A stretch of DNA of 64,000 nt, taken from contig CALJGL010000001.1 of NCBI GenBank assembly GCA_938075155.1, forward strand, positions 20,181-84,180. The letters run 5' to 3'. This DNA is from an uncultured bacterium. Lineage in GTDB: Bacteria; Planctomycetota; UBA8108; UBA1146. A program made the translations under genes and the position numbers. The notes beneath the pieces were generated by a model. That model saw only the letters and a program-made list of their open reading frames with translations. It had not been told where the DNA came from and searched no databases. Within the stretch, counting starts at the first letter, position 1, and the number at the start of each line of letters is the position of its first letter. Shown here piece by piece: positions 35,518 through 64,000 of the stretch.

Positions 35518-38500
35518 ATGAAAAATGCAATGTTGTTAGGACTTATTGCCTGCTTAGCAGCGCTCGTTCCTTTCACCTCCATCGAAGCCCAACCCGCAAA
35601 TGATGAATGTGCAACTGCACAAATCGTCGGCGAAGGCTCATTTCCTCTCGACAATACTGGATCGGTCGTAGAAGGCCCAACAGACTGTGACGCCCAAATG
35701 AGCACAGATGTCTGGTTCCTCTACACCGCCACTGATACAGGAAATGCTCTTATCGAGACCTGTAACACTCTTGGAACGATGGACGACACCGTTCTTATCG
35801 TTTACGACGGCGCACTGGGTTGCCCGACGGCAGGCGCAGCCTGCCTCGTCAGCGATGACGACGGTTGCACCGCTCCAAACTTTAGTTCCACAGTACAGCT
35901 GCCTGTCATTTCAGGTGAGTCCTACCTCGTTCAGGTCGGTGGCTGGAATGGCGCAGTGGGATCGAGTGACCTCAGTATTTCAATCCTTGGTGCAGAGATT
36001 TGCGATGACGGCATCGATAACGACGCCGACGGAGCCATCGACTGTGCAGACATCGACTGTGGTGGCGACCCTGTCTGCGGTACCGAAATTTGCGACGACG
36101 GAATCGACAACGATGGCGATGCAGCTGTCGATTGTGCCGACCTCGACTGCATAGGTACTCCCGCCTGTCCTTCAGCAACAAATGACGACTGTGCCAATGC
36201 CACACCCGTCGGAGAAGGTATTTTCCCCGTTGATAATACTATTTCGACACTAGACGGCCCCACCGACGCTGATGCGAACATGGGTACAGACGTTTGGTAC
36301 CTCTACACCGCAAGCGAAACCGGCAATGCTATCATCCAGACTTGTGAGACTCTGGGCACCTTGGATGACACTGTCATCATCGTTTACGACGGTGCTGCAG
36401 GTTGCCCAATTGCTGGATCTCCATTCCTCGGGAGCGATGACGACGGCTGTGCAAACCCAGCCTTCAGTTCTATCGTGAACATTCCCGTCTTTGCTGGAGA
36501 CACCTACCTTGTTCAGGTCGGTGGCTGGAACGGTGCAGTGGGAACAAGTGATCTCGATATTTCGATCGCTGCTCCCGAAATCTGCGACGACGGAATCGAT
36601 AACGACTTCGACGGCACCATCGACTGTGCAGATACAGACTGCATCGGCTTCCCAACATGCGGAGCTGAAGTCTGTGACGACGGTCTTGATAACGACGGCG
36701 ATGGACTGATCGACTGTCTCGACTTGACCGACTGTCTCGGAACCCCTTCCTGTCCTGCGGCCAGTAACGACGAATGCATCACTTCGACAGAAATCGTCAT
36801 CACCGGTTCGGGTATCTACACGGCAGCGATGGACAATAACTCCGCTTCCACGGGACTCGATCCTCTTCCAACTATTCCCTGTAACGTGTTGGGACAGCTG
36901 GCCAACGATATCTGGTACTCCTTTACTCCCGACGTGGACATGAGTGTTGAACTTCACACCTGTGACCCCCTCGGATGGGATACAGATTTGGTTCTCTACG
37001 AAGGCGCAGATTGCAGCCTTCTCACAGAATTAGCTTGTGACGGTGACGGAGTGGGCCTCACGGGCTGCCAAGGATTCTACAGTTACATCAACTTTGTTCC
37101 GGTCTTCGCAGGAGTTGAATACAAAATCCGCTGTGGTTCATGGGGTGCTGGTCTAGGCACTGGACTTCTGACTCTGAATGCCGTGATTCCAGGTGTTGAG
37201 GACTGCCTCAACGGTCTTGACGATGACGTCGACGGACTGACCGACTGCGCAGACCCCGACTGTTTCACTGAGCCCAACTGTGATGAATCTCAAAACTGCT
37301 TCGACGGCATCGACAATGATGTCGATGGTCTGATCGACTGCCTTGACGACGATTGTGCCGCTGATCCGGGTTGTGCCGAGATTTGTGACGACGGCTTAGA
37401 CAATGACGGTGACGGACTGATTGACTGTGCAGACAACACCTGTGCATGCACCGCAGCCTGCCCCATACCTCTGGACGCCGATGAATGCTGTTCGGCACTC
37501 CCAGTCACTGACGGAGCGAATGCTTTCGACACAACTCTGTTAACTGATAGTGGTAACAACATCACCAACTGCGGAGGTGGCTTCGGAGCGATGAGCACCG
37601 ATGGTTGGTTCTCATACACTGCAACCGCAGACGGTAGCCTCTTTTGGGATACATGCGATGCGGCTTCATTCGATACTGACGTAAACGTCTACACCGGATC
37701 TTGCGACGCACTCATCGACGTTGATTGCAACGGAGATGGCGTGGGTCTCACGGGCTGCCAAGCATTCTACTCCTCTGGTGGTTTCCAGGTTCTTTCAGGT
37801 GAGACTTACTTTATCCGTATCGGTGGATTTGGTGCAGGAACTGCAGGATTGGGCACACTGAATATCAGTGTCACCTGTGCAGATCTGATCACCGGCTTTG
37901 CCGGAGCAAACGACTGCTCAACTAACGATGTCACGTTAACTTGGGATCCTGCTGGTTACGACACTTACGACGTTTCCAGAGACGGTGTGGTTCTTGCCAC
38001 CGGTCTTCCCGCTGGCACCGTCAGCTACATTGACAGTTCTGGACTGGCCAATGGCACATACAACTACGAAGTTTCAGGCGTCTGTAACGCAGGTGGTGGC
38101 GATACCCAGCAGACGAGTGTCTCTGTGGCATGCTCCTCAGGTGGAGAAACAGACCTGATCATCAATACTGATCCAGGACTTGGACTGGTTGATAGTACGG
38201 GTGCCCTTGAAGTCGCTCTGACCGCCAACGGCATCGCATTCCTAACCGTTCCGGATGCACCTGCAACCCTTCTCGGTAGCGTCATCGGTTCATACGAAAG
38301 AGTCTGGGTCATGACTGGTACCTTCGGCTCCGACGGCCGTTTGACGAGTGCCGACAGTGATGCACTGGGTTCCTGGATTGAAGCTGGAATCGGCGTCTAC
38401 CTCGAAGGTGGAGACCACTGGGGATTCGCAGTAAATGCCGGTAACTTTGATAACTACGACGGCGTCATTGGCGCTGCAGATGGAGATGACACCTTCGTCA

Positions 38501-39105
38501 GCATGAACGGGTTAGATACTCTGATCGGAACCGACTGGAGTGATCTCCTCGGCGTGCCCTACACTCAGGATCAGGCGGGTAATGACTGGACTGACCAGTT
38601 GACCGTTGGCCCCGAGTTGGGTGGACCCGATGTTGGCGCGATCTGGCAAGAGGCCGCTGGACTTTACACCACGGGTGCTCTTAGCCTGAACCAAGACTTG
38701 GGAGGTAGCCCCATTGGAGTTGCCCTTATCCAGTCTTGGGAATTTGGTGGCTTCGGTGGAGATCAGACCGATCTCGCTGCACGCATGCTCGCTGCATTGG
38801 GCGGCAACAGCGGTCCTGTCGGTCCAAACTTCGGCCGTGGTGACTGTAATGCCGACGGCGGATTTAACATTGCGGACGCCATCTTTGTGTTGGCTGCACT
38901 CTTCAGTGGAGGACCGTCTGGGACTTGTCTCGACGCCTGTGATTCCAATGACGATGGCGGAGTCAACATTGCGGACGCGATCTTCTCACTGGCAGCCTTG
39001 TTCAGTGGTGGTCCTCCTCCGAGTGCTCCTGCGCCCGGCACCTGTGGTCTAGATGCCACCGATACCGACGCACTCGACTGTGTGTCATTCCCACCATGCC
39101 CGTAA
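35518..39105 (+). CDS. Giant secreted protein 1 (1195 aa): four Cys-rich beta-sandwich modules, eight Asp/Cys-rich repeats, a shared central module and a C-terminal double dockerin-like module
   Basis: The gene has the RBS AGGGAG and a signal peptide ([24 protein letters not shown]). The repeated module has the pattern NDECA...DVWFLYTA...TC..DT...Y.G..GC....C..DDDGC...Y.VQVGGW. The [22 protein letters not shown] repeats occur eight times. The C-terminus reads [26 protein letters not shown]...[25 protein letters not shown]...DCVSFPPCP. Confidence 0.85.
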
Positions 39106-39153
39106 TCACAGGCATTAGGGTTTAAGCGGCTCTGCTTTCAGAGTCACTTTGAA

Positions 39154-39188
39154 GGGATCTCTCCAAATGGAGAGATCCCTTTTTTTTT
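39154..39188 (+). terminator. Rho-independent terminator
   Basis: The hairpin GGGATCTCTCC-aaat-GGAGAGATCCC is followed by T9, 50 nt after the stop of protein 1. Confidence 0.7.
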
Positions 39189-39446
39189 GCATACGTGGGC
39201 CCATTTCTCACCCACATTGAACTGCCCAAAAGCCTAAAGTTTTAAGTTCCCAGATATACGACACATCTGACTCAACTCTCTTTCATGACTAAACTGTCAT
39301 GCAAGTCACATAGGCCTCGCATGTATACTTCGTAATATATATGTTCTATTTGTATAGTTATTCACCTCAGGTCGAAGTGGTCCTTTATGCCCACATTCTT
39401 CGCCTTCGAAACATTATCAATCTTGAGAACTAGGCCTGGAATTATC

Positions 39447-41498
39447 ATGCTTTCAAACTCGTCGAGTTTAATAACGTCCCAGATTCTCCATCGGTCGATA
39501 AACCTACTGATCATTTCCGTGGCCTTATTGATCAGTTCTCGTTGTCAATCTCAGGTGATCCCTACAGGACTCCTCGAAGAAACTCCCCCTCGATCCGCGA
39601 ACACCTCATCCGGAACGGGTCCGCTGTCTCCTTCGGATCTCGTCGCGGGTCCTTTCTCCCTCTCCGGGAGCAGTGCCTACGGCATCTGTTACATGCCTGG
39701 AAATAACCCTTGGGGACTTCCGATCCTTGTGGTGGCTGAACTCTTCAGTGCTGAAAGCTGGGTCTACAATGCGCTGGATTTGACACCACTCTCGTCCATT
39801 CCAAATCCCCCATCTGGAATTTCTGTAACAGGAGTCACGACAGATGGGACTTATTTGTATTGGGGAGTGATCAATCCACCCGGTCCCAATGAACTCTGGA
39901 GATCCAATCCGGACGGAAGCTCTGCGTTTCTTCTCGGAGAGGCAGACATTCAAGGTGGTGGATTTATTGGAGGACTTTGCTGGGATGGGAATCAAGGCAT
40001 TTGGGCTAACGACATCACCGCGGATCAATATGACCTTCTCTCCATCAGTGACGGTACATATTTAGGCGTATCTGTTGACCACCCAGATGGAGGTGGAATG
40101 GGGAACGGCCTTGCCTTCAGAGCCGACTGTCAACGTCTCGCCATACCTCATGGGCATGACTTCTCAGGGAGAGTAACGACGATTTCGAGTACCTCGACAC
40201 AAAGTTCAATCCCCCTAGGCCCCGTGGACATCAGTGAGAACGGTTTCTTCATCAATGGAATTGAAAGCTCTCGCCCCGCAGTCGATCCGATGGCTGATCC
40301 GTTTGGGATCTTCACATATTGGGTCGTCGATAATTCCAGCAACACCATATCAGTCGTAGAGGGGCACGACGGATGCCCAACTCTCATCGACCCCATCCAA
40401 GAGTTTGAATGCAGTGCTGACAGCGATGGTGTCATCCAAGTGACATGGAACAGATCTTCTCAAATCGAGAATATGGAGATCCGTCTCGATGGAATCCTAA
40501 TGGCGACCGTTCCAGCGAGTCAGGGGAACTGGACGGGTGTGTCACCGACACTCCCAGACGTCCTACGGATTCAAATCCAGGGTTTCAATGGCAATAATTG
40601 GACCCCCCCCACCCACTGTGACTTGGTTCTTCCAGGATGTAATCCCTCTGTAATGGAAGTCGCCCACGTCACCAATAGCGAAGAGTTGGCTTTGGGAACT
40701 CCATTTTGTGGAGACTTGAATGGACACTTGGAACAGTCCTATTGGAGATCGTTTTCTCCATGCCTCTCTCCATTTTCACTCTCTGACGGTTTGATTCTGG
40801 AATCTATTCGATTGGGCATTGAGCAATCTGACCCAGCGCCGGGTATGCAAACCCAACCCCTCGTCCTCAAGATCTATCAGGACCCCGACGGTGGCGACGT
40901 GGGTCCAATATCCACTTTGGTTCTCCTCCATGAACAAGTATTCCTAGCTCCGGCTCTCTCTATGAATCATTTATGCGTCACGTTGGATGCTCCCCTAACA
41001 ATTCCGTGTGATCTCGACGTCGTTGTAGAGATTTTTCTTCCCGACGGTAGTCTCGATGGACATGTTTTTGTTCTGGGTTCAAATTCAAATGGTGAATCTC
41101 ATGAAACATGGCTTTCAGCACCGGGATGCTCCATCGACTCACCCACCCCTCTCTCTAACTTGGGATACATCAATCGTCACATCGTGATGCAGTTCAGAGG
41201 ATCACTTCCGGATTCAAACTTCGCTCGGGGTGATATCAATTCGGACAACTCCATCAATTTGGTCGATGCTGTTTTATTATTGGAAGCTCTATTCACTCCA
41301 GGCGCAGAACCCTTGAACTGTCAAGATGCCGCGGATGGAAATGACGACGAAGGCGTGAATTTGGCGGATGCCATTTTTATTCTCAGCTACCTTTTCATTC
41401 CTGGGTCACCTGAGATTCCCGATCCGACAACCTCATGTGGCCCTGATCCCACCTCTCCAACTCTTCTGGATTGTCAAATTCATCCAAATTGTCCCTGA
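39447..41498 (+). CDS. Giant secreted protein 2 (~683 aa from the internal start; the ORF track start is 39387): Fn3-like/beta-rich region and a C-terminal double dockerin-like module
   Basis: The signal-like segment is MLSNSSSLITSQILHRSINLLIISVALLISS. The C-terminus reads ARGDINSDNSINLVDAVLLLEALF...NDDEGVNLADAIFILSYLF...LLDCQIHPNCP. Confidence 0.75.
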   Translation: MLSNSSSLITSQILHRSINLLIISVALLISSRCQSQVIPTGLLEETPPRSANTSSGTGPLSPSDLVAGPFSLSGSSAYGICYMPGNNPWGLPILVVAELFSAESWVYNALDLTPLSSIPNPPSGISVTGVTTDGTYLYWGVINPPGPNELWRSNPDGSSAFLLGEADIQGGGFIGGLCWDGNQGIWANDITADQYDLLSISDGTYLGVSVDHPDGGGMGNGLAFRADCQRLAIPHGHDFSGRVTTISSTSTQSSIPLGPVDISENGFFINGIESSRPAVDPMADPFGIFTYWVVDNSSNTISVVEGHDGCPTLIDPIQEFECSADSDGVIQVTWNRSSQIENMEIRLDGILMATVPASQGNWTGVSPTLPDVLRIQIQGFNGNNWTPPTHCDLVLPGCNPSVMEVAHVTNSEELALGTPFCGDLNGHLEQSYWRSFSPCLSPFSLSDGLILESIRLGIEQSDPAPGMQTQPLVLKIYQDPDGGDVGPISTLVLLHEQVFLAPALSMNHLCVTLDAPLTIPCDLDVVVEIFLPDGSLDGHVFVLGSNSNGESHETWLSAPGCSIDSPTPLSNLGYINRHIVMQFRGSLPDSNFARGDINSDNSINLVDAVLLLEALFTPGAEPLNCQDAADGNDDEGVNLADAIFILSYLFIPGSPEIPDPTTSCGPDPTSPTLLDCQIHPNCP

Positions 41499-41828
41499 TA
41501 TGACCATTCTGGAGTCGTGACAGGTTAATCAGGTGCTTGACCCCGGACGTGGGACAGGTAAATTTGGGATATTGGGCGAATGAGTATTTTTTTCATTTAT
41601 TTGAGGCTGTTGATGGTCTCGCAGTTATGAGTTTCGTATTGCAGAGGGCAGAACCTCTACATACGAAAAGATGGATACTCTTAGCAATAATTTGAATTTT
41701 AGTTTCCAGCATCACCCAGAGATGTTGTGAACACTTATCCTGCCATCAGATGGCATCTCGAAGTAATCAACATATTAACCGGCCAATCCGGCGTGGATTT
41801 GCCATTAAACCAGGAAGGGTTTTCTAAT

Positions 41829-44800
41829 ATGAGACACCTACCAATTCTTGCAGCACTCTGCGTGCTACTCAGTGGAGGCGTAGTTCATGCTCAGGGAGCT
41901 GACGAATGCGCTAACGCACAATCCATCAATCTCGGAGCTCCGGGAACGGTCACTGTTGTCGTGGACAACACCGCCGCGACAAACAGTGCTGAACCATTGA
42001 GCGCTGGCGGTACGTGCCCAAACACAGCTATCGGAACCACCGAGGCTGATGTTTGGTACAGTTGGACCGCACCAAATACTGGCCTTTTGGATGTCAGTAC
42101 CTGCGTTAATCCAGGTCTTCTCGACACTGATATTTATCTTTACGATGCCAGTGGCGGTTGTGCTGCTCTGATCGAAGTCGGCTGTAATGGTGACGGCGTT
42201 GATGCTAACGGCGTAGCATGCGTGAATTTCGGTTCAAACATTGTAGGTGCACCTGTTTTTGCTGGCGTGACTTACTTTTTAAGAGTCGGTGGCTGGGATG
42301 CTGGATCTCTCGGAACGACCGACATGGATGTCACATTCACTCTGGGTACGGTCGCTCCAGATAACCTGACCTGTAACTATGACGCCTTGACAAACGAAGC
42401 CGCTCTCACTTGGGATAACCTAGATCAATACGACACTCTTGATTACTACCTCAATGGTACTCTTACAGGACAACTCGACGGCACTGCTGGAGCAGCTACC
42501 GGAATCGTGAGTGGTCTGGTACCCGGCTCCAACGAGATCTGCCTTGAAGGTACCATTGGCGGAATCGCCAGTACTCAAACATGCTGCATCGTCTACATTG
42601 CCGAGCCATGTCCTCCGACTGTTGCCGCAACCATGTCTCCGATTGCCACGGTCATTCCTCTTATTGGAACCGTCTCCTGTAATGCAGCCGGACTTCACGC
42701 CGACAACTCATACCTGCGTTCCTTTGATTTGGTCAATGGATACGGAGTCAGCGACGAGATTACAGTCGAATGCGTAACGACAGCTGTCGACGTTTCCACT
42801 CCAGGTGCTGCAGGTACTCAGCCTGTCCGAGTTCGCCTGATTGTTGACGTCAACGGTGGTGGTCCACAGAACTTCACCTATCTTGCGGGAACCAATGTCG
42901 GACAAACTCCGGATATTGGAAACAACTCCATGATCATGGTCTACGAAGAAGAGTTCCAGCTTCCTGCTATCCAGGGACTTGAAAACTTCAACTTCGTTCT
43001 CGGTACCGGTGTCGTTGACCCGGATGCCCTCGGCGCCAACAATCCGACACTTCAGTGCATGACCGCATACGGACCCAGTGCAACTCTCGCAGTTGAGATT
43101 TTCACTCCCGACGGACAAACTGACGGACACTCATACTTCATGGGTGCTTCTGACACTGCTGTCGAAAATGGAGTCAGTTACATTGTTTCATTGGCTTGCG
43201 GCCTGAACAGCCCCAGCCCTCTCTCCGGAATTGGTTTTCCCAACAACCGTTACATCATGGACGTCGGCTACTCCGTCGCAGTTGCAGGAACCTGTGGCAG
43301 TGCTGGTGGGGTTTCCAACCTTCAGTGTAACCAAACTGTCGGAGAACAGACCTGGAACCTGACATGGGACGACGCCGGTGGTGCCACCTCATGGATCGTT
43401 GAAGTCGACGGCAATGTGGAGGCCATCCTTCCGAGCACCGACTTGGCGTTCACGACTGGACCCCAGTTCGAGTACCAAGATGTTGACGTTTTGATCAGCT
43501 CCTGGACTGGACCTGGTGGAACCGGAACATTGATCAACTCTGCGGGTTGTACTCTTCAAACCGCCCCAGCCAACAACTGGCCAGAGGGTGCAAGCATCAC
43601 TGCTTCAGGTACTTTCCAGCAGGAGATTGCCACACCGTACACAACGACTATTGGTCAGCCGCTCGATATCGCTGTTTGTGACCCGGGAACTGGTGTCGTC
43701 CAGATCAACAACGACATCTTCTTGCGCTACACCGCTACCAACGACGGCGATGTTTTAGTCAGTACCTGTAACCCAAATACGGCCATCAACGGTGATGACA
43801 CCATGCTTGCCGTCTACACATATGACGCCGCTCTTCTCGATGATCCGAATCTCGCGATCGCCTGTAATGACGATGTCAATGTAGGTGCAAACCCGACTAA
43901 TAACCCCGCCTGTAACGTTTTCCTCGCTGAGGCGATCTTTGCAGCGACAACAGGAACCGAGTACCTCATTCGTCTCGGTACCTTCAACGCAGCAGGTACA
44001 GGAGCACTCGAGTACACGATTAATGATTGTGTCCCTGCGACCAACATCTCAGGAGCTTCAGAGTGCACCACGGGAGACGTGACCTTGAACTGGACACCGA
44101 ACCCGAACGCTGCGTCTCAGGAAATCCTGCGTGACGGCGTTTCTCTCGCAGTAATAGGCGCAACAGAAACCAGTTACATCGATTTGGGTGTGGCTGATGG
44201 CAACTACCTTTACGAGGTAGTGACCGATTGTGGTGGCGGCCCCAACCCCATTGGCGTCGCAATCTCTGTGCTGACCTACGCGGGTCAGACTGACCTTATC
44301 TTCGCGGTTGAGGGACTTCTGAACGCTGGAGACCCCGGACTGGTAGACAGTGGAGCACTTCTTGAAACCGCTCTTGCGGGTGCCGGAAGAACCGTCGGCT
44401 TGATCCGAGGTAGCTGGCTTGATTACCCCTGTGCCAGTGACGCAGGAGTTTCCAACGTCTGGATTCTGGCAGGAACCGTACCTAACGATTACCGCATCTC
44501 TGTCGCTGAGGGTGACGAACTCGCAATACTTGGAGAAGCCGGTAAGGGCGTTTACTTCGAAGGTGGAGATCACTTCGGATTCATTCACGCAGCCAGCCTG
44601 TTTGACTCTCGTGATGGCGTGGACGATGGTACATACGATACTGGTGACGGAGATGACACCTTCACCGCCATGGACGGAGCAGATTCCGGACAGGGTCTCG
44701 ATATGAGTGCCAATGCTGATGTGCCTTACACTCAGGATCAGGCTGACAACGACTGGACAGACCAGTTGACGGTGGCCAATGCTGATACAGGACTGTCTGG

Positions 44801-45281
44801 CGCTGGTTCACTCTGGCTCTCTGACGATGCCTTGGTCGATGCCGCGGGTGCTCCGATTCCTCCGTACATTACTGCTATTGCCGGTACTGCAAACGTGGGT
44901 GGAAACACCGTCGTTCAGTCCTGGGAAATCGGTGGATACGGTGGCGATCAAACGGCTCTCGCTCTTGCATACGCAGAGTTCATCGAGGGTGGTGGATCAA
45001 CCGGACCAATCTTTAAGCGTGGAGATGCAAACCAAGATGGTGGATTCAATATTGCTGACGAGGTCTTCCTATTGGCAGCCCTCTTCTCGGGTGGAACTCC
45101 CTGTGAATGCGACGACAGTTGTGACCAAAATGACGACGGTGGAGTAAATATTGCCGACGCGATCTATGGTCTTGCTGCGCTCTTCTCGGGTGGCCCCGCT
45201 CCTTCAGACCCTGGACCGAGTGTCTGCGGCGAGGATCCCACGGCTGACTCACTCACTTGTGACACCTACAACGGCTGTTAA
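41829..45281 (+). CDS. Giant secreted protein 3 (~1150 aa; the ORF track start is 41727): two Cys-rich beta-sandwich modules, the shared central module and a C-terminal double dockerin-like module
   Basis: The likely start is MRHLPILAALCVLLSGGVVHAQGADECANAQ..., which is a signal peptide. The central module (QTDLIFAVEGLL...GGDHFGF...[18 protein letters not shown]...QSWEIGGYGGDQT) is shared with proteins 1 and 4. The C-terminus reads [27 protein letters not shown]...[22 protein letters not shown]...LTCDTYNGC. Confidence 0.85.
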   Translation: MRHLPILAALCVLLSGGVVHAQGADECANAQSINLGAPGTVTVVVDNTAATNSAEPLSAGGTCPNTAIGTTEADVWYSWTAPNTGLLDVSTCVNPGLLDTDIYLYDASGGCAALIEVGCNGDGVDANGVACVNFGSNIVGAPVFAGVTYFLRVGGWDAGSLGTTDMDVTFTLGTVAPDNLTCNYDALTNEAALTWDNLDQYDTLDYYLNGTLTGQLDGTAGAATGIVSGLVPGSNEICLEGTIGGIASTQTCCIVYIAEPCPPTVAATMSPIATVIPLIGTVSCNAAGLHADNSYLRSFDLVNGYGVSDEITVECVTTAVDVSTPGAAGTQPVRVRLIVDVNGGGPQNFTYLAGTNVGQTPDIGNNSMIMVYEEEFQLPAIQGLENFNFVLGTGVVDPDALGANNPTLQCMTAYGPSATLAVEIFTPDGQTDGHSYFMGASDTAVENGVSYIVSLACGLNSPSPLSGIGFPNNRYIMDVGYSVAVAGTCGSAGGVSNLQCNQTVGEQTWNLTWDDAGGATSWIVEVDGNVEAILPSTDLAFTTGPQFEYQDVDVLISSWTGPGGTGTLINSAGCTLQTAPANNWPEGASITASGTFQQEIATPYTTTIGQPLDIAVCDPGTGVVQINNDIFLRYTATNDGDVLVSTCNPNTAINGDDTMLAVYTYDAALLDDPNLAIACNDDVNVGANPTNNPACNVFLAEAIFAATTGTEYLIRLGTFNAAGTGALEYTINDCVPATNISGASECTTGDVTLNWTPNPNAASQEILRDGVSLAVIGATETSYIDLGVADGNYLYEVVTDCGGGPNPIGVAISVLTYAGQTDLIFAVEGLLNAGDPGLVDSGALLETALAGAGRTVGLIRGSWLDYPCASDAGVSNVWILAGTVPNDYRISVAEGDELAILGEAGKGVYFEGGDHFGFIHAASLFDSRDGVDDGTYDTGDGDDTFTAMDGADSGQGLDMSANADVPYTQDQADNDWTDQLTVANADTGLSGAGSLWLSDDALVDAAGAPIPPYITAIAGTANVGGNTVVQSWEIGGYGGDQTALALAYAEFIEGGGSTGPIFKRGDANQDGGFNIADEVFLLAALFSGGTPCECDDSCDQNDDGGVNIADAIYGLAALFSGGPAPSDPGPSVCGEDPTADSLTCDTYNGC

Positions 45282-45319
45282 CAAGCAAGATAAGATAGGC
45301 TGTAAAGTCTTTCTTTACT

Positions 45320-45357
45320 GGGGTGGTGAGAGCATTGCTCTCACCACCCCTTTTTTT
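45320..45357 (+). terminator. Rho-independent terminator
   Basis: The hairpin GGGGTGGTGAGAGC-attg-CTCTCACCACCCC is followed by T7, 39 nt after the stop of protein 3. Confidence 0.7.
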
Positions 45358-45630
45358 GTGTCCAATAGAAGAGAAACAGTTCATAGGCTGTATTGCGGCC
45401 CAGTCCTTAGACCTTTACCATTGATACTGGCTTTGTTCTTACACCAAACCCTATTCTTGTCCACTGAGGAGGTGTTCCTCGGTTCTCAATCAGGGTGTGG
45501 TGACCGGATCAATACCACGGGTTTCGAAGTTCAATCACGTAATCCGGGTTGTTCATATTTTTGGATATTTCTCAGACACACTAAATAGTGTCAGGTGACT
45601 CTTGGAGTCGCTTTTTTCTTGGAGGTTAGA

Positions 45631-48600
45631 ATGCTGATGAGATGGATACTCACAGGACTGATTCTGGTGCTCATTAACTTTTCCGGAACTGCCGATGCTC
45701 AGGTAACGATCAATGAGATTCGTACTGATCAATCTGGCTCGGATACCGATGAGTATTTCGAATTAGCAGGTCCCCCTGCAACCAGCCTTGCTGCATTGAC
45801 GTACATCGTCATTGGCGATGGTTCCACCGCCAGCGGAACTATTGAAGCCGTGGTCAGTCTTGCCGCAGGGAACATCTCCTTTTCGGGTCTGTACGTAGTT
45901 GCAGAAGATACCTTTACTCTGGGCGTCGCAGATATGACTGCAAACCTCGGATTCGAAAATAGTGACAACGTGACTCATCTTTTGGTGGAAGGCTTCTCTG
46001 GCGCACTTGCCGATGACCTCGACACCGACGATGACGGAGTTCTGGATGCCACTCCATGGACTAACATTGTCGACTGCATCTCCCTCCTCGAATTTCCGAT
46101 CGACCCTCTGACAGGACAGCCCACTGAAGGAGAGCTCGTATATTGTTCAAATACTGTGGGTCCAGATGGAACCTTTGTTCCCGGACACTCAGGACGTTGC
46201 CCCGATGGAACGGGTGATTGGGAGATTCTCGACTTTGGTGATCTGGCCTCAGATACACCTGGAAACCCCAACACCTGTCCGGAAATTTGTGATAACTCCG
46301 TAGATGACGATGGAGACGGATTCATCGACTGCCTAGACGACGAATGCTCAGGAGATCCTGCATGTGCCCCCGCACCGCTCAATGACGACTGTGCCAGTGC
46401 CACCAATATCGGAGAAGGTTCCTTCCTTGTATCCACATTTGGTTCCACGACAGATGGCCCTACCAATTGTGGCGGCAGTACTCTGAATGATGTTTGGTAT
46501 CTCTATACGGCAACGTGCAGTGGACTCGTGACCTTGACCACTTGCGGAACGTCAACTTTTAATCCGCAAATGGCGATCTATTCGGGCTCCTCAACTTGTC
46601 CTCCAGATTTCGCAAACGTATTGGCTTGTGATTCCGGAAGCTGTGCAGGATCCGGAGACCCAGAGATTCTCTTCGATGCAATTTCTGGTGAAACATACTT
46701 AGTTCAAATCGGTGGATTCAATGGTGAAAGAGGTGAACTCACCTTAACCGTCAGTTGCCCACCCGACGATTGCCACCAAGCACCCAATCCAAATTTGGAA
46801 TTTCAGGGATTCATTGGAGTCTCTGGTTCGAGTGCACCCGCAGCTCCGATTGCATATGTCGGAGACCCAGCAACAAACTTCACCTTTGATTCAATAAACA
46901 TCGCTGGTGCAGGAACTATTGAAGATCTTGATGTTGGTGTAAATATCACTCACGGGTTCATTGGAAATCTTGATATCGATTTCGTATCGCCCGCCAATAC
47001 TCAGATCAGACTTTACCAAAATGAAAACAACTCTGACGATAACATGTCCTTGATCTTCGATGACGAGGGAGCAACATACGGGAGCGATACCACTTTCAGT
47101 GGCATCCGTATGCAACCTTATGCCTTGTCTCAAGGATCCGGATCATTGGCTGACTTCGACGGCGAGCCCGCTGCTGGTAACTGGACGATTCTTGTAGCAG
47201 ACGGATTTGCAAGTACTGCAGGAGGCACCCTCGATGACTGGTCCCTCTTCATTTCCCAGCCAGAAACCATCACCGGTACCCAAGACTTCGTGATCAACAT
47301 CGATCCCAACTCCCTTGAAGGAGTCGACGATCTGGATGTGGACATGAATCTTTCCCACCCGGACCTGACTCAGGTCGAAATCGATCTCCTGTCTCCCGGA
47401 GGAACCAGTATCCGACTTCATGACAATGGAGCAGGTACAGATCTAATCGGACGCTTTGACGACGCTACGGGTCTCAACGACGGTTACGGTTCATTGATCC
47501 CATCTGGCCCGGGAACACTGGCAGACTTCGATGGCGAAATCATCGGCGGCGACTGGACCCTGACAATTGCAGCGGGAACCTCGACCGGTACATTCTCTAA
47601 CTGGGCGCTACAGGTATGCCCTGCAAACTGCCCTGCTCCCAGTGACCTTGTCATTGAGAGTGACTGCGCAGGAGATGCCGTGAACTTGTCGTGGATCAAC
47701 AACACGGCCTACTCAAATATTTCGATTGAACGCGATGGAGCCATCGTCGCCACTCTTGCCGGCGCAGACACAACGTACTCTGACGTCTCACCTCCTGAAG
47801 GATTCCACGAATACGTAGTGAGAGGTTCTTGCACATCAGGTGCAGGAATCGCTTCAGGATTCGTCGATCACTTCTCGTATAATGGTGAAGATACATTGGT
47901 CTTTGCTCTCGAAGGGCTCTTGGACGACGGCGATACTGGATCGAATGATTCAGGTGCTGCTATTCAACAAAGCCTGATCGCCTCTGGCGTCAATTCGAAG
48001 CTGATCAGGAAACAGATTGACGAATTTGCATGCCTCGACCCCGCTCAGATTTCTCAGGTATGGGTTCTTTGTGGAACTTTCCCCACGAACTTCCGTCTCA
48101 ATAGCGCTGAAGCGGACCTATTGGCATCGCTTGCAGAAGCAGGAGCTTCGGTCTACTTCGAGAGTTCTGATCATTGGAGCTTCAACCACCCGATTTCGAC
48201 GTTCGATGATCGAGATGGTGTTGCAGAACCTTACGAGCAAGACGACAACGACTCTCTCGTCGGCTTAGATGGTGCAGATAGTGGTGTCGGACTGGATATG
48301 TCTGCAAACCAGAACGTGCCTTACTCGCAAGATAATCAATCCACGACCGGAAACCCCAATGACTTCACGAACATCCTCATTCCAGCCACAGCAGAACTCG
48401 CAGGAGGAACCGCAGGTTTGGCATGGAGATTCGACGACGCCATCGGTGTCACTTTTGGAGTCACGACCGCCTACATTCCGGGAACCGGTGGAAGAGTGAT
48501 CTGCTCCTCATTCGAATTGGGGGGATACGGTGGAAACCTCGATAGCGTCGTTTCCGCTTACCATGACTTCCTTGGAGATAGTGTCGTCACTCCTGGAACT

Positions 48601-48873
48601 GGATTCCAGAGAGGTGACTGCAACTCTGATGGTGGATTCAACATTGCGGACGCCATCTTCCTTCTCGGAAATCTGTTCTCTGGTGGCCCAGAAGGCACCT
48701 GTACTGACGCTTGCGATGCGAACGACGACGGCAGTGTCAACATTGCAGATGCCATCGCTGCCCTAGGAAGCCTGTTCAGTGGAGCGGGACCACTTCCTGA
48801 CCCGTTTGGCGATTGTGGAGAAGACCCCACTTCAGACAGCATCGAATGCGCTGAGTACAACAGCTGCCCCTGA
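45631..48873 (+). CDS. Giant secreted protein 4 (~1080 aa; the ORF track start is 45595): lamin-tail domain, one Cys-rich beta-sandwich module, two proprotein-convertase P-like domains, the shared central module and a C-terminal double dockerin-like module
   Basis: The RBS GGAGG precedes MLMRWILTGLILVLINFSGTADA. The region QVTINEIRTDQSGSDTDEYFELAG... is LTD-like. Two segments of the form ...GxLxDxDVxxNITHGFIGNLDIDFVSPANTQIRL...GNWTILVADGFASTAGGTLDDWSLFI are P-domain-like. The C-terminus reads [27 protein letters not shown]...NDDGSVNIADAIAALGSLFSG...IECAEYNSCP. Confidence 0.85.
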   Translation: MLMRWILTGLILVLINFSGTADAQVTINEIRTDQSGSDTDEYFELAGPPATSLAALTYIVIGDGSTASGTIEAVVSLAAGNISFSGLYVVAEDTFTLGVADMTANLGFENSDNVTHLLVEGFSGALADDLDTDDDGVLDATPWTNIVDCISLLEFPIDPLTGQPTEGELVYCSNTVGPDGTFVPGHSGRCPDGTGDWEILDFGDLASDTPGNPNTCPEICDNSVDDDGDGFIDCLDDECSGDPACAPAPLNDDCASATNIGEGSFLVSTFGSTTDGPTNCGGSTLNDVWYLYTATCSGLVTLTTCGTSTFNPQMAIYSGSSTCPPDFANVLACDSGSCAGSGDPEILFDAISGETYLVQIGGFNGERGELTLTVSCPPDDCHQAPNPNLEFQGFIGVSGSSAPAAPIAYVGDPATNFTFDSINIAGAGTIEDLDVGVNITHGFIGNLDIDFVSPANTQIRLYQNENNSDDNMSLIFDDEGATYGSDTTFSGIRMQPYALSQGSGSLADFDGEPAAGNWTILVADGFASTAGGTLDDWSLFISQPETITGTQDFVINIDPNSLEGVDDLDVDMNLSHPDLTQVEIDLLSPGGTSIRLHDNGAGTDLIGRFDDATGLNDGYGSLIPSGPGTLADFDGEIIGGDWTLTIAAGTSTGTFSNWALQVCPANCPAPSDLVIESDCAGDAVNLSWINNTAYSNISIERDGAIVATLAGADTTYSDVSPPEGFHEYVVRGSCTSGAGIASGFVDHFSYNGEDTLVFALEGLLDDGDTGSNDSGAAIQQSLIASGVNSKLIRKQIDEFACLDPAQISQVWVLCGTFPTNFRLNSAEADLLASLAEAGASVYFESSDHWSFNHPISTFDDRDGVAEPYEQDDNDSLVGLDGADSGVGLDMSANQNVPYSQDNQSTTGNPNDFTNILIPATAELAGGTAGLAWRFDDAIGVTFGVTTAYIPGTGGRVICSSFELGGYGGNLDSVVSAYHDFLGDSVVTPGTGFQRGDCNSDGGFNIADAIFLLGNLFSGGPEGTCTDACDANDDGSVNIADAIAALGSLFSGAGPLPDPFGDCGEDPTSDSIECAEYNSCP

Positions 48874-48895
48874 GCTCGATCGCTGACTTATTGAA

Positions 48896-48932
48896 AAGAG
48901 ACCGGAGAGAAATCTCTCCGGTCTCTTTTTTT
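48896..48932 (+). terminator. Rho-independent terminator
   Basis: The hairpin GAGACCGGAGAG-aaat-CTCTCCGGTCTC is followed by T9, 23 nt after the stop of protein 4. Confidence 0.7.
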
Positions 48933-59606: not shown

Positions 59607-59647
59607 AAAAAAAAAGGGAGTGACGCCAACGCGCCACTCCCTTTTTT
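59607..59647. terminator. Bidirectional rho-independent terminator
   Basis: An A9 run precedes GGGAGTGACGC-caac-GCGCCACTCCC and a T6 run follows it. The hairpin lies between the convergent cupin and M4-peptidase genes. Confidence 0.65.
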
Positions 59648-59663
59648 CGCCAAATGCGAACTA

Positions 59664-62600
59664 TTAGGGGCAAGAGTTATACTCTGCACACTCCAGATTA
59701 GTACCACTGGGATCAGAACCACAGACTCCATTGGAAGGAACTGGGATATCGGGCCCATTGGTAAACAGATAGCTCAACAAGTAAACGGCATCCGCAATGT
59801 TACTCAGCTCATCGTCATTGGTATCGGTTGCGTCATCACAGGACACGACCCCACCTAAGAAAAGTGCGTTGAGTAGCGAGACGGCATCTGCCAAGTTTAT
59901 CAAAGCATCGTCATTGATGTCCGCACGAATAAACCCACCTACACTCGGATTCAATGTGATGGTTCCATTCACTCCTGATACACCAGCAGACTGTGAACTC
60001 ACAACTACAACGAGTTCAACAGGCGGAACACCAAGAGTATCGGAGAATTCGACCTGAGTACTCAATGGTGCGGTATTACCTGCTAAACCAGCAGGAACTG
60101 TATCGTATTCGACAGACAACAGGTCTGTTGCAGTAGCAAACGAAATCACGTCCGCACCTACGAATGTATAAACACAGCCCACTGTGAGGCCATCCGCAAA
60201 ACTATTCACATCAAAGAAGTCAGGTCCCGTGTTTCCATTCAAGGCCGTCAGTACCGGAGCGGCGATCGCACCTGTCGCGGACAAGATTGCAGGATCATGG
60301 ACAATACCTAATGAAAATGCTTGAGTCTCATTGGGATAACCTAGGTTCCCTGGATCTTCCTCAACCGAAACGGAAACTTCAAAGGAGCTGCTACCCGTCG
60401 CTTCTGGGTAATCCACTGCTTGGTCAGCAGCCGTCATGATAAAGCCTGAAGGATCAAGACTGATGGTTCCTGAGTTTCCACCGGCAATAACAGCCGTACC
60501 TGACGAAGTCGACACAATCAACTCTACTGGAGGAGAGCCCAAAGATTCGGAAAAGCTAAGCGTAGAGGAAACGGTGCCCGTGGCACTCGCCAGTGATCCT
60601 GGAAGTGAGGTGTAACTCACAGAAATGATTTCTGTATCCGACACCATTTGCAATGTTTCGACGAGAGTGAAGTCGTACACCGATCCGACCGTGAGTCCGT
60701 CGGAGTAGATGGTGGTATCAAAGAAAGCAGGACCCGCTCCACCGTCCATGGCAGCAAGATCTCCGAGAGCCTGTGCAGAAACTGCTTCAAACAATGCCCC
60801 ATCATGAGCTAATCCGAAGGAGAACCCGGCTGTGTCTGTTGGGAATCCCGGATTGTTCACTTCTTCCTGGAGAGAGACAACACTTTCAAAGCTTGCTCCA
60901 CCGGCACTGTAGGAACCGTTGACATTCCCGGCCGTGAACATGAATCCAATCTGCTGAATCACGTCAATACTGCAAGTACTCGTGGGTGCCGCTTGGGATC
61001 CTGCACAAAATGGCTGAAGGGTGTAAACACGACTGCCGACTTGAGCGGAGGAATCCGTGTAACTCGTCGCTGTTCCCGGCAGGGTATCTACCAGTCCGCC
61101 ATCCCGAAGCACTCCAATAGAGTCATAGTCTTCTCCATTGTTCCATGAAAGAAGAATTGAGTTCCCACTGACCTGACTACAAGAAAAAGCATTCGCCGAT
61201 ACACAGATACAATCCGGATCAGAAATACAATCGGGATCTTCGCAATCGGTCAGCCCATCCAAATCATCATCTGTTCCGTTGTTGCAGTTCTCAGGAGGAG
61301 GCGGAGGAGCCTGGGTGCTGATTTCGAGAGTACCGGATCCAATCGCCGTATTATTCCACCCGCCCAAGCGGATCAATACTGTGGATCCAGCACTGAGATT
61401 GGTGGTCACGGAACTGGTCAAGCCACCGCATCCTGCACCATCACCATTACAGGCGATGGGAGTGAGAGCTCCACAAGTTCCAGAATAAACCAAGATATCG
61501 GAATCAAAGGTGACCGTATCACACGTTGAGATGACGTACTCTCCGGAGGAAGGCACAGTGAACTCGAACCAAACATCGTTGATAAAATCACCGAGGAATG
61601 TTCCTCCACAGGTCGAGTCATCTATCGCGTCCGCTCCGGTCGTCGCGGCTGTGTTATCCACTGCATTCGATCCCAGAATAGCGACTTGAGCAGTAGAACA
61701 TTCGTCACCCGGAATAGCAGGGACACATGCTGGGTCGCTAGAACAATCGAGGTCCTCGCAATCAGCAAGACCGTCTCCATCGTCATCGACACCATTGCTG
61801 CAATTCTCCACAGGTCCACCGGATGTCAAATCAAGGATCAGTGCGCCTGGCCCCGGTAATCCATTTCCGGGATGAGGTGTTCCCCATGCCCCGATACGGA
61901 ACCAATATGTTTCGCCGGCAGTCACATCCAGAGTCAACTCTGACCAATATTGCTGACATGTTGGAGAAGTGTTTTGATTCACGTCTCCATTACAACCCAG
62001 ATTAATCAAAGAACCACAGGACCCTGTGTAGGCCACAAGATCCGTGTCAAAACTTCCGGGCGAACAAGTCGAGACAAACAGGGAACCCGATTGATCAGGA
62101 ACATAGGAGTACCAGATATCACCCAGCATATCTCCGAGTCCTTGACCACAGGTCGCGGCATCCGGAATAGGATCTGTTCCTGTTGTTGCAGCAGTGCTAT
62201 CAAAAGGATTGGTCCCCAAGATCGCCACTTCAGCCGAGACACATTCATCTCCAGTCGCGGGTGGAACACAAGCGGGGTTGGTGCTGCAATCAATGTCTTC
62301 ACAGTCCGCTAACCCGTCCCCGTCATCGTCCACACCATTGGTGCAATTTTCGACACCGCCACCGCCACTAGGAACAAACAACACTTCCATGTCACCAGAA
62401 CCGGTGACTCCCTCACTCCATGAAGAGACTCGAATCAGATAAGTGGTTCCACCCGTGACAGGAATATTCTCAATACGTGAGGTGAAAGTAGAACAGCCTC
62501 CTGTGTCACCGTTACAAGCAAGTAGATTGAGTGCTCCACAATTACCAGTGAACACTTGAAGGTCAGTGTCCCAGCTCGCAATACCACAAGTACTCACCGA

Positions 62601-64000
62601 CATCGTTCCCGCTTCGGGAGCAGAATATGAGTACCAAATGTCATTACCGCAGGCACCAATGGCGGTACCCGGACAAGCAGAGTCATCGGGTCCAGGTCCT
62701 CCTGTGGTCGCATTTCCACTCGTGATGGAATTCAGACCAATGAATACAGGAGTCGCTCCGGCACAATCATCATTCGCCGGAGGTGGTCCCGGAGGAACCT
62801 GACCACAGACCAACTCTGACATTCCCACAGCAGTCATCACCGCTGCAATTTGGTCAGCGTCTGATTGCGTGAAAACCGAGCCGGCAACACCCGTCCGAGG
62901 GTCGATAGGACTCGAGTTGAGCAAGTCAGCAGCCGCTTGATTAATATGGGTTTCAGCCTGAGGGAAATCAGTGGCCTGAGTCATGTAGACGCTGAGGGCT
63001 CGGAAGTAAACCGCTGTTGCCTTCGTCAGCCCAATCGGCGTGATCGTTTGGCCATTATAGGTTTTACCATCGACGAGAATGGCAAATGAATGATTCAAGA
63101 CTCCACTCCCGATGTGCACCCCACCATTATCAAATGGACCACAAGCATTTTGGTTATAGAGAGGATCAGTAGTACTCGGAGGATCGTTGAAACACTCCGG
63201 GAACATCATATCCCGAATAGCACCTAGGCTCGTTTCTTCACCCATCCTCCAACGAGCGGAACCATCACCGCATCCTGTTCTTGCATTGTTTGGAGTATCC
63301 AGACCAGATCCACTCGAACCCGCGATAGGCCAAGGTGTACCGCCGGGAGCGCCAATTTCTGAAACGTCACCGTTCCAAAGATCGATCGCTTCTCCAAAGA
63401 TATCTGACATCGCCTCATTCAGCTGACCAGATTGATTTTGGTAAATCAGGTCTGCCGTGAATTGTGTCAATCCATGAGCGAGTTCGTGAGCGATCACATC
63501 GTCGGTACCCAGCCCATTACAAAACGCACCTTGAGTCCCATTCCATATAGCATTGGGACAAATATTATCGCTCCAGTTGGCAGTGATGATCATGGATCCA
63601 CCGAATCCGTCTAGGCTATCTCTGCCCAGAGAATCAGAGAGCACACGATAAAGATCACCACATGTATCGTAGGAGTTATCGATATCAAGGATTCCGGATG
63701 CAGGGGACCCTTCTGTTCTGGCAAGTGCTCCAGGGAGCCCTCCACCTCCGGATCCGTCATAGATCTCACGGATCAGGGCACTATGTACTGCAGGCCAGTG
63801 GTCGAGGACCACTCCGGTTCTGGCATCAACAAGAATGTTTTCAGCCAACATGTCATTACCTTCGGCAACGAGATGATGCGCCAGTACAGGAGCAGCGATG
63901 GGGTCGTCCCCCCACCAGCCCGGATTCGCGATGACCAGCTGAGCAGGAGCCGTCTCTACTAAAAATTCCTGCCCAAGTTCCTGTGCTGCTAGTTCAACAG
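59664..64000 (-). CDS. Thermolysin-like M4 zinc metalloprotease fused to three Cys-rich beta-sandwich modules, Asp/Cys-rich repeats, Fn3-like/beta domains and a C-terminal double dockerin-like module; the N-terminus runs off the window
   Basis: The HEXXH motif (VIAHELAHGL) and the downstream NEAMSDIFGE are the M4 signature. The reading frame stays open upstream of Met 63851 to the window end (...VETAPAQLVIANPGWWGDDPIAAPVLAHHLVAEGNDMLAENILVDARTG). There are three copies of the NDDCA...DIWYSY...TC..DT...C.GD..C...Y..R.G.W module. The C-terminus reads ADINDDALINLADAVSLLNALF...NDDELSNIADAVYLLSYLF...LECAEYNSCP. Confidence 0.85.
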   Translation of the reverse strand, partial: VELAAQELGQEFLVETAPAQLVIANPGWWGDDPIAAPVLAHHLVAEGNDMLAENILVDARTGVVLDHWPAVHSALIREIYDGSGGGGLPGALARTEGSPASGILDIDNSYDTCGDLYRVLSDSLGRDSLDGFGGSMIITANWSDNICPNAIWNGTQGAFCNGLGTDDVIAHELAHGLTQFTADLIYQNQSGQLNEAMSDIFGEAIDLWNGDVSEIGAPGGTPWPIAGSSGSGLDTPNNARTGCGDGSARWRMGEETSLGAIRDMMFPECFNDPPSTTDPLYNQNACGPFDNGGVHIGSGVLNHSFAILVDGKTYNGQTITPIGLTKATAVYFRALSVYMTQATDFPQAETHINQAAADLLNSSPIDPRTGVAGSVFTQSDADQIAAVMTAVGMSELVCGQVPPGPPPANDDCAGATPVFIGLNSITSGNATTGGPGPDDSACPGTAIGACGNDIWYSYSAPEAGTMSVSTCGIASWDTDLQVFTGNCGALNLLACNGDTGGCSTFTSRIENIPVTGGTTYLIRVSSWSEGVTGSGDMEVLFVPSGGGGVENCTNGVDDDGDGLADCEDIDCSTNPACVPPATGDECVSAEVAILGTNPFDSTAATTGTDPIPDAATCGQGLGDMLGDIWYSYVPDQSGSLFVSTCSPGSFDTDLVAYTGSCGSLINLGCNGDVNQNTSPTCQQYWSELTLDVTAGETYWFRIGAWGTPHPGNGLPGPGALILDLTSGGPVENCSNGVDDDGDGLADCEDLDCSSDPACVPAIPGDECSTAQVAILGSNAVDNTAATTGADAIDDSTCGGTFLGDFINDVWFEFTVPSSGEYVISTCDTVTFDSDILVYSGTCGALTPIACNGDGAGCGGLTSSVTTNLSAGSTVLIRLGGWNNTAIGSGTLEISTQAPPPPPENCNNGTDDDLDGLTDCEDPDCISDPDCICVSANAFSCSQVSGNSILLSWNNGEDYDSIGVLRDGGLVDTLPGTATSYTDSSAQVGSRVYTLQPFCAGSQAAPTSTCSIDVIQQIGFMFTAGNVNGSYSAGGASFESVVSLQEEVNNPGFPTDTAGFSFGLAHDGALFEAVSAQALGDLAAMDGGAGPAFFDTTIYSDGLTVGSVYDFTLVETLQMVSDTEIISVSYTSLPGSLASATGTVSSTLSFSESLGSPPVELIVSTSSGTAVIAGGNSGTISLDPSGFIMTAADQAVDYPEATGSSSFEVSVSVEEDPGNLGYPNETQAFSLGIVHDPAILSATGAIAAPVLTALNGNTGPDFFDVNSFADGLTVGCVYTFVGADVISFATATDLLSVEYDTVPAGLAGNTAPLSTQVEFSDTLGVPPVELVVVVSSQSAGVSGVNGTITLNPSVGGFIRADINDDALINLADAVSLLNALFLGGVVSCDDATDTNDDELSNIADAVYLLSYLFTNGPDIPVPSNGVCGSDPSGTNLECAEYNSCP

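Follow-up and report, generated by a model that had tools for sequence, protein, structure and literature searches.

Five genes in the 64-kb window (the whole stretch of DNA analysed), here named A to E, end in the same module of ~90 residues, which is a type-I-like dockerin with two Ca2+-binding loop/helix repeats, to which a Pro-rich linker and a tail of ~20 residues with conserved cysteines are attached. In addition, E carries two predicted cohesin-fold domains. The reading that we favour, and consider fairly probable, is that this dockerin, stapled by disulfides, is part of a cohesin-dockerin surface system of planctomycetes that comes close to the hypothetical 'planctosome'. Given the dockerin shared by the five proteins and the two cohesins of E, a non-cellulosomal system for surface assembly is more probable than a set of orphan dockerins.

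An ORF check of the window confirmed all five genes (Table 1). The starts of A to D match those in the NCBI gene models for MAG proteins of near-identical sequence (1195, 683, 1150 and 1080 aa), while the reading frame of E is open up to the window edge, its N-terminus lying outside; residues of E are numbered from the ATG at 63851. A full-length relative of E (P0139, 1602 aa) has an FTP propeptide in addition. Elsewhere in the window no further module or cohesin ORFs were found, and the upstream regions of A to D have no common DNA motif. Where DNA is repeated between the genes, identity is only 60-75%, which points to old duplications and not to recent gene conversion. The N-terminal payloads, first described as differing between members, are less different than stated, since A, C and D have ~400 C-terminal residues in common, including FN3 and the GATase1-like domain; residues 332-581 of B are similar to 193-477 of C. 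For the GATase1-like domain only 12 homologues and no PDB sequence match were found. Pfam confirmed the M4 protease of E and the P-domains of D (E = 1.6e-23), whereas Pfam did not support the LTD proposed for the N-terminus of D, even with a cut-off of E ≤ 1. The earlier note had also assigned a strong terminator to each of A to D; strong terminator hairpins follow A, C, D and E but not B.

Table 1 Features of the dockerin-bearing genes in the 64-kb window
Feature	Position	Strand	Length or residues	Description
Gene A	35518..39105	+	1195 aa	Signal peptide, 4 galactose-binding-like domains interleaved with 7 acidic double-disulfide repeats, FN3, GATase1-like domain, dockerin + Cys tail
GATase1-like/ThuA-like fold domain of A	38134..38829	+	aa 873-1104	Also in C and D
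Module of A	38830..39102	+	aa 1105-1195	Dockerin (2 Ca-loop/helix repeats), Pro-rich linker, CGLDAT...DCVSFPPCP
Hairpin 3' of A	39151..39182	+	14 bp stem	Terminator-like; stem then T-run
Gene B	39447..41498	+	683 aa	Signal peptide, unannotated body, dockerin + Cys tail (41220-41495)
Gene C	41829..45281	+	1150 aa	Signal peptide, galactose-binding-like domains, FN3, GATase1-like domain (44277-45011), dockerin + Cys tail (45012-45278)
Hairpin 3' of C	45320..45350	+		Terminator-like
Gene D	45631..48873	+	1080 aa	Signal peptide, LTD-like N-terminus (without Pfam support), acidic repeat, galactose-binding-like domain, 2 proprotein-convertase P-domains, FN3, GATase1-like domain (47878-48603), dockerin + Cys tail (48604-48870)
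Hairpin 3' of D	48893..48930	+		Terminator-like
Hairpin 3' of E	59610..59647	.	17-nt arms	A and T runs on flanks; just 3' of the E stop codon
Gene E	59664..64000	-	>1444 aa	Thermolysin-type M4 protease, galactose-binding-like domains with acidic repeats, 2 cohesins (predicted), dockerin + Cys tail
Module of E	59667..59933	-	aa 1307-1395	Dockerin + CGSDPS...ECAEYNSCP
Cohesin-fold domain 2 of E (predicted)	59940..60449	-	aa 1135-1304
Cohesin-fold domain 1 of E (predicted)	60450..60950	-	aa 968-1134

The five modules can be aligned with 30 invariant columns, and pairwise BLASTP across the module gives E-values of 1e-15 to 1e-19, which, with the coordinates, bears out the initial claim that all five genes share it. 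Type I dockerins consist of two tandem segments of ~22 residues, in each of which a helix comes after a 12-residue Ca2+ loop (D-x-N/D-x-D-G-...-D). All five modules have the two loops, with invariant loop Asp/Asn, and among 120 relatives conservation of the loop positions D1, N3, D5 and D12 is 97-100% in each repeat; the two repeats are near-identical to each other (NIADAI in both). A profile of the five modules matches cellulosomal dockerins in the PDB (E = 1.2e-5), and the module has the compact three-helix dockerin fold. In the dockerin HMM search that the earlier note had proposed, run with PF00404 on the modules alone, A (23.0 bits) reaches the gathering threshold of 22.9 bits and the other four fall below it (B 21.5, D 18.6, E 9.8 and C 8.9 bits); of 98 relatives, 38 have a match with E ≤ 0.01, the best with E = 1e-10. 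The profile match and the PF00404 matches of the relatives support the dockerin identity, but what had been called a double dockerin is a single one with two Ca-loop/helix repeats. The consensus of dockerins borne by enzymes differs from that of dockerins on adaptor proteins, which hints, as far as sequences can tell, at different specificities. The 'RGD' at the start of the segments was considered as an integrin-type adhesion motif and rejected: the Arg is conserved in the family and the G-D opens the first Ca loop.

The Cys-containing tail is conserved far outside the window, although its motif had to be corrected from Cys-x(4-5)-Cys-Pro to C-x10-11-C-x5-C-(P), following the Pro-rich linker. 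Four cysteines are near-invariant, three in the tail and one in the linker between the dockerin repeats. Among 360 parsed unique modules, 156 have this four-Cys core and 140 have six cysteines, with p6 and p37 both Cys; about 38 further modules seem to place the partner of p37 elsewhere (21 counted in the linker, 17 judged from examples with a Cys in helix 2), and an optional third Cys pair occurs in about half of the family. In one lineage (P0239/P0269) two tail cysteines were lost together. From these counts and this lineage, the three tail cysteines and the linker cysteine most likely pair in two disulfides, which would staple the tail onto the dockerin; the predicted partners are the linker cysteine with the second tail cysteine, and the first tail cysteine with the third. 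The earlier suggestion of a disulfide-locked tail fits these data. One near-invariant cysteine lies within the dockerin, and the conservation of the tail is thereby coupled to the domain. The Cys counts, the pLDDT of the tail (79-86 in a deep-alignment model) and the occurrence of the module at N-terminal and internal positions suggest that the tail belongs to the dockerin domain.

These positions also bear on the sorting or anchoring signal that the earlier note raised as an alternative, taken here to be a C-terminal signal for sorting, secretion or covalent attachment that a dedicated machinery would read, the dockerin being incidental. A genome scan with the module alignment yielded 186 module ORFs at 76 loci, almost all of which bear the label Planctomycetota, and the module is the end of the ORF in 182 of them, 115 of which terminate in Cys-Pro, as such a signal would have it. 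However, in two loci (L068 and L074) the module with its complete tail directly follows the signal peptide and precedes 600-1000 further residues, and in another (L073) it occurs twice in one protein, in the order module-cohesin-module. C-terminal sorting signals are strictly C-terminal and consist of a hydrophobic helix and a basic tail, or of a beta-sandwich CTD. The module contains no hydrophobic or basic stretch, lacks the features of PEP-CTERM, LPXTG, GlyGly-CTERM and T9SS CTD signals, and had no match among the curated sorting-signal models of NCBIfam. From the positions of the module we rejected the sorting and anchoring reading, which we regard, also in view of the cysteine within the dockerin, as highly improbable.

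The statement that no cohesin occurs in the window proved wrong, as residues 968-1304 of E form two predicted cohesin-fold domains. In the AlphaFold model of residues 960-1395 (pLDDT 93; pTM of the three domains 0.70) they adopt the nine-stranded beta-sandwich (jelly-roll) of cohesins, which superposes on known cohesins at 2.0-2.6 Å. The repeats of E, searched singly and as a profile of nine sequences, had no Pfam match at E ≤ 10 and no PDB sequence match; the identification comes from the predicted structure and from matches to PF00963 in six of 98 relatives (best E = 3.2e-5). Run against public data, the cohesin profile retrieves 1535 representative clusters (50% identity), and 139 of the best 150 carry the same Cys-tail dockerin. 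The other 11 are six fragments and five complete lipoproteins with cadherin/Big_9 repeats, two terminal cohesins and no dockerin, which are candidate membrane anchors. The dominant and very common architecture is a small secreted protein (~430-850 aa) with a signal peptide, 2-4 cohesins and one Cys-tail dockerin. Cohesin genes lie within module-gene clusters in 7 of the 76 loci collected with the module alignment; in L068 an anchor-type gene is directly upstream of three module genes, on the same strand, and one MAG has both an adaptor (P0122) and A-like module genes. No anchor-type lipoprotein was found in the two loci seen of the window's own MAG (L001 and L061).

In the assembly that we propose, the Cys-tail dockerin would bind divergent cohesins of the same lineage, which would be presented in three settings: on enzymes such as the M4 protease E, which has a dockerin besides its two cohesins; on the small secreted proteins with 2-4 cohesins and a dockerin, as adaptors; and on the cadherin/Big_9 lipoproteins with two terminal cohesins, as membrane anchors. 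A to D would then be cargo and E both cargo and secondary scaffold, together forming a cell-surface assembly for protein processing and binding in an oxic marine planctomycete. What the analysis shows are the domain identities, the pattern of conservation and the statistics on fusions and neighbourhoods, whereas we infer the disulfide pairing, the binding of the dockerin to these cohesins, a hierarchy of the parts and their place on the cell surface. The cohesin-dockerin organisation suggested earlier is partly supported, with candidate cohesin partners found, and the sorting or anchoring alternative offered beside it is not. More tentatively, the system may be hierarchical and phylum-wide in Planctomycetota, with a hitherto undescribed stapled dockerin subtype and two-cohesin lipoprotein anchors recruiting the 2-4-cohesin adaptors; these hold more cohesins than dockerins, which would give branching and multiply the docking sites for proteases and binding proteins like A to E.

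The numbers could also be read without such an assembly. The sampled loci contain far more module ORFs (186) than cohesin ORFs (7), the recognition positions 10/11 of the dockerin are Ile-Ala and not the classic type I Ser-Thr, and outside cellulosome producers dockerins for which no cohesin is known are common (discussed in PMC6461901). Many of the dockerins could therefore have no partner, or one of an undetected kind: the module would be a Ca2+-dependent, disulfide-stabilised domain that binds a non-cohesin target (envelope glycan, peptidoglycan, S-layer or particulate substrate) or merely stabilises the protein, the cohesin-like domains being unrelated. We consider this unlikely, since exactly this dockerin type accompanies the cohesins in nearly all of the best 150 proteins, the complete exceptions being lipoproteins, and since cohesin and module genes adjoin in several MAGs; moreover, one scaffold can serve many cargoes, so that dockerins should be in excess wherever they work with cohesins.

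The dominant architecture of 2-4 cohesins and one dockerin per chain, the module-cohesin-module protein of L073 and the pTM of the E model, which predicts some fixed inter-domain geometry, would also suit self-binding, in which the cohesins and the dockerin of one chain pair in cis or head-to-tail, giving auto-inhibited monomers, self-polymerising fibres or branched networks with no hierarchy of anchor, adaptor and cargo. This leaves the dockerin-only proteins A to D and the cohesin-only lipoproteins unexplained, and the different consensus of enzyme and adaptor dockerins hints at separate specificities; we find self-binding quite improbable.

To our knowledge, what is known of cohesins and dockerins comes almost wholly from anaerobic cellulolytic Firmicutes, with only the hypothetical 'planctosome' in planctomycetes. 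The results give a testable parts list, made up of a dockerin subtype with the diagnostic C-x10-11-C-x5-C-(P) tail, a cohesin family of ~1500 clusters, adaptors and candidate lipoprotein anchors, and the tail motif is a simple annotation marker for hundreds of 'hypothetical proteins'. If the proposed binding is real, it would explain how large secreted proteases and binding proteins are retained on abundant marine planctomycete cells, and would offer disulfide-stabilised, seawater-compatible cohesin-dockerin pairs for the protein-engineering toolbox. A phylum-wide hierarchical system, if confirmed, would be a protein-directed counterpart of the cellulosome in the oxic ocean.

The likeness to the type I pairs of cellulosomes, such as the Clostridium thermocellum Xyn10B dockerin with the CipA cohesin (PDB 1ohz/2ccl) and those of Acetivibrio cellulolyticus (5nrk/5nrm), lies in the duplicated Ca-loop/helix segments, the near-identical repeats as in dual-binding-mode dockerins, the superposable beta-sandwich of the predicted cohesins and the variable cargo on a constant docking module. 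In contrast, the host is an aerobic marine Gram-negative planctomycete, the module has a conserved linker Cys and a disulfide-rich C-terminal extension, Ile-Ala replaces the Ser-Thr of classic type I recognition positions, and the candidate anchor is a lipoprotein. The cargo also differs, consisting of protease, P-domain and binding-domain proteins: Pfam and NCBIfam revealed no glycoside hydrolases, CBMs or SLH domains, but instead the M4 protease, P-domains, galactose-binding-like domains and acidic repeats, and the CAZyme cargo, CBM scaffoldin and SLH or sortase anchor of cellulosomes are absent. Like the adaptor scaffoldins (ScaA/ScaB of A. cellulolyticus, and CipA of C. thermocellum with its type II dockerin), the candidate adaptors combine several cohesins and one dockerin in a single secreted chain, which would allow hierarchical amplification of cargo, but they are much smaller, lack a CBM or X-module and bear the same dockerin class as the cargo. 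The non-cellulosomal cohesins of Archaeoglobus fulgidus (2xdh) and of the Clostridium perfringens toxin complex (2vo8 and 2w1n) belong to systems without the Cys-tail extension, and no lineage-wide family of similar size with lipoprotein anchors is known to us.

In the hypothetical planctosome, a surface-tethered peptide-degrading complex proposed for freshwater Nemodlikiaceae (Andrei et al. 2019, ISME J, PMC6461901), the cohesin is on the LTD/P-domain protein, which serves as the anchor, and the peptidases are M12B and M14, whereas here the protein with P-domains, D, has a dockerin at its end, the predicted cohesins are on the M4 protease, and M4 is the peptidase type. The Cys tail, the 2-4-cohesin adaptors and the lipoprotein anchors are not mentioned in its description, supplement aside (PMC6461901). 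The two nevertheless share non-cellulosomal planctomycete cohesin and dockerin modules that occur with peptidases, P-domains and acidic repeats of the Ca-binding kind, and the LTD-type protein of the planctosome may have a counterpart in D (PMC6461901); Planctomycetota origin, P-domains, a dockerin-bearing M4 peptidase and predicted cohesins are all found here, with the LTD lacking Pfam support.

Five proteins, A to E, end in a ~90-residue module composed of a dockerin, a Pro-rich linker and a Cys tail. Their ORFs lie in the window where the earlier note had placed them, as a same-strand series of four and a convergent fifth member. The module can be aligned in all five, with 30 invariant columns, and BLASTP between module pairs, restricted to the module, gives E-values from 1e-15 to 1e-19; no window ORF besides A-E contains it. 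The starts of A-D agree with those that NCBI annotates in near-identical proteins of marine Planctomycetota MAGs, and the public locus L001 (isolate BS30m-G49) is 100% identical to A across the module. Gene E extends past the window, since its frame is still open at the edge and its match to the M4 catalytic domain begins at profile position 74; its predicted start is the ATG at 63851, yet the minus-strand frame is stop-free from there to 64000. Strong terminator-like hairpins follow A, C, D and E; B, which the earlier note had credited with a terminator like the rest of A-D, has none.

Coordinates of the module genes, their domains and related public loci
Feature	Location	Strand	Remark
Gene A	35518-39105	+	ORF
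Gene B	39447-41498	+	ORF
Gene C	41829-45281	+	ORF
Gene D	45631-48873	+	ORF
Gene E	ends 59664, open up to window edge	-	ORF, convergent to A-D
Cohesin 1 of E	residues 968-1134		resemblance by eye, later predicted structure
Cohesin 2 of E	residues 1135-1304		resemblance by eye, later predicted structure
~30-aa acidic repeat arrays	35990-37461 and 46277-46365; also in E		alternate with PF23759 domains
B-C common region	B aa 332-581 = 40440-41189; C aa 193-477 = 42405-43259
Candidate membrane anchors	P0181, P0205, P0208, P0253, P0271; L068 2-1036		public relatives and locus
Tandem pair, ~329-331-aa family	L019 4291-5280 and 5284-6270		public locus
Module right after signal peptide	L068 8419-12270		then large body (600-1000 residues, range with L074)
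Module right after signal peptide	L074 6337-8667		then large body (600-1000 residues, range with L068)
Module-cohesin-module	L073 7934-9190 (minus strand)		single cohesin between two modules

The module had been read as a double dockerin, whereas its first ~58 residues form a single one: the five-module profile spans whole cellulosomal dockerins of 60-70 residues in the PDB (best match 2y3n_B, E = 1.2e-5). Against Pfam Dockerin_1 (cut-off 22.9 bits) the five copies in the window give borderline scores of 23.0, 21.5, 18.6, 9.8 and 8.9 bits. Among relatives the match is clear, with 38 of 98 reached and a best E of 1e-10. Both Ca loops are canonical and almost the same as each other, with NIADAI in each. 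As for the RGD that the earlier note saw at the start of four of the five segments, the Arg is conserved family-wide, while G-D is the opening of Ca loop 1.

The earlier note saw no cohesin candidate in the window, but E itself has two. These repeats gave no match in sequence searches; an AlphaFold model of E 960-1395, from 98 sequences, has pLDDT 93 and pTM 0.70, and 6 of the 98 relatives match Pfam Cohesin. A nine-sequence profile of the E repeat reached 1535 representative clusters, 203 of them with E ≤ 1e-30, and 139 of the best 150 of these representatives carry the dockerin and tail, typically as putative adaptors with a signal peptide, 2, 3 or 4 cohesins and the module (~430, 600 or 800 aa). 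Small cohesin-plus-module genes also occur within module clusters (public loci L019, L063, L073 and L075), and the adaptor P0122 is encoded by a MAG that also carries A-like loci. The 11 module-free proteins comprise 6 fragments and 5 complete sequences, all five of them lipoproteins with a lipobox, a Gly-rich (poly-Gly) linker, Big_9/cadherin-like repeats, two C-terminal cohesins and no dockerin. At L068, a gene of this candidate anchor type is directly upstream of three module genes on the same strand. When 120 enzyme-type and 133 adaptor-type proteins were compared, the dockerin repeats of large cargo proteins were almost the same (N-I-A-D-A-I), whereas those of the 2-4-cohesin adaptors were more divergent and asymmetric, chiefly in repeat 2, which could reflect two binding specificities.

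The tail follows the linker as CG-x-DPT...C-x5-C-(P), most frequently spaced C-x10-11-C-x5-C with 0 or 1 residue after it, and is predicted by AlphaFold with a deep alignment at pLDDT 79-86. Among 360 unique modules parsed from public data, 156 have a 4-Cys core (one inter-repeat linker Cys and three tail Cys), and 140 add to it a pair of covarying Cys, one at loop-1 position 2 and the other immediately ahead of loop 2. A further ~38 apparently place the partner of this pair elsewhere, 21 by count in the linker and 17 with a helix-2 Cys in inspected examples; if these are counted so, ~90% of the modules appear to have an even Cys number, as expected if every Cys sits in a disulfide. In the related proteins P0239 and P0269, Cys 1 and Cys 3 of the tail have disappeared together while its Cys 2 and the Cys of the linker persist, a weak hint at the disulfide pairing. 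A recurrent module-bearing family of ~329-331 aa (L014, L016, L019-L021, L024, L033), often arranged as tandem pairs, carries one more Cys in helix 2 of the dockerin; this Cys apparently takes over from the one in loop 1 the pairing with the Cys that precedes loop 2. In the literature searched, with incomplete coverage, a dockerin tail of this kind is nowhere described.

A word-indexed search returned 232 module proteins with conserved tails, those with names almost all from Planctomycetota, and a scan of species-representative genomes gave 309 relatives. The 76 retained loci, nearly all labelled Planctomycetota, hold 186 module ORFs; a 12-kb locus has as many as six, and tandem clusters as in the window are therefore typical. 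The module stands at the ORF end in 182 of the 186, and Cys-Pro is final in 115 of those. Four relatives of 114-144 aa with no partial flag (P0035, P0038, P0077 and P0090, the last on a 5.9-Mb contig) apparently contain little beyond leader and module, and may be either stand-alone dockerins or mis-called starts.

The payloads differ less than had been thought. Two P-domains in D and the M4 protease of E were confirmed, and the full-length E relative P0139 adds an FTP propeptide; the LTD proposed in D lacks Pfam support, and A, C and D have ~400 C-terminal residues in common (FN3, a domain of ~240 aa, and the module). Galactose-binding-like domains (PF23759) occur in A, C, D and E, and acidic double-disulfide repeats (NF033662) in A (7 copies), E (3) and D (1, sub-threshold), with 62-75% DNA identity between the copies in the arrays. 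The ~250-aa region common to B and C (25% identity, E = 1e-19) has no Pfam match, and the remaining B body is likewise unannotated.

We consider it probable that these genes belong to a non-cellulosomal cohesin-dockerin system, in which secreted proteins would be tethered, through a disulfide-stapled dockerin, to the cohesins that adaptors, E-like enzymes and lipoprotein anchors carry. The domain identities and their co-occurrence come directly from the data; the binding, its hierarchy, the disulfide pairing and the cell-surface location we infer. That the dockerins are orphans with a different ligand is rather unlikely, and binding in cis or self-polymerisation, for which a protein such as E would carry both partners, is doubtful to a slightly greater degree. 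A sorting signal, as once suggested for the tail, is very improbable: complete copies, dockerin and tail, lie at the N-terminus in L068 and L074 and modules occur internally, the module has no hydrophobic or basic stretch, and one Cys of the core lies inside the dockerin, which together argue that the tail belongs to the domain.

The proposed tethering system would work in a like manner to the cellulosome, but its cargo and anchors do not have the features that define the latter. Among published ideas, the nearest is the hypothetical 'planctosome', put forward for freshwater Nemodlikiaceae (PMC6461901). The available part of that account says nothing of the Cys tail, of the family of adaptors or of lipoprotein anchors; as far as it goes, it has P-domains, peptidases and cohesin/dockerin modules in common with the present system, and gives these domains different roles.
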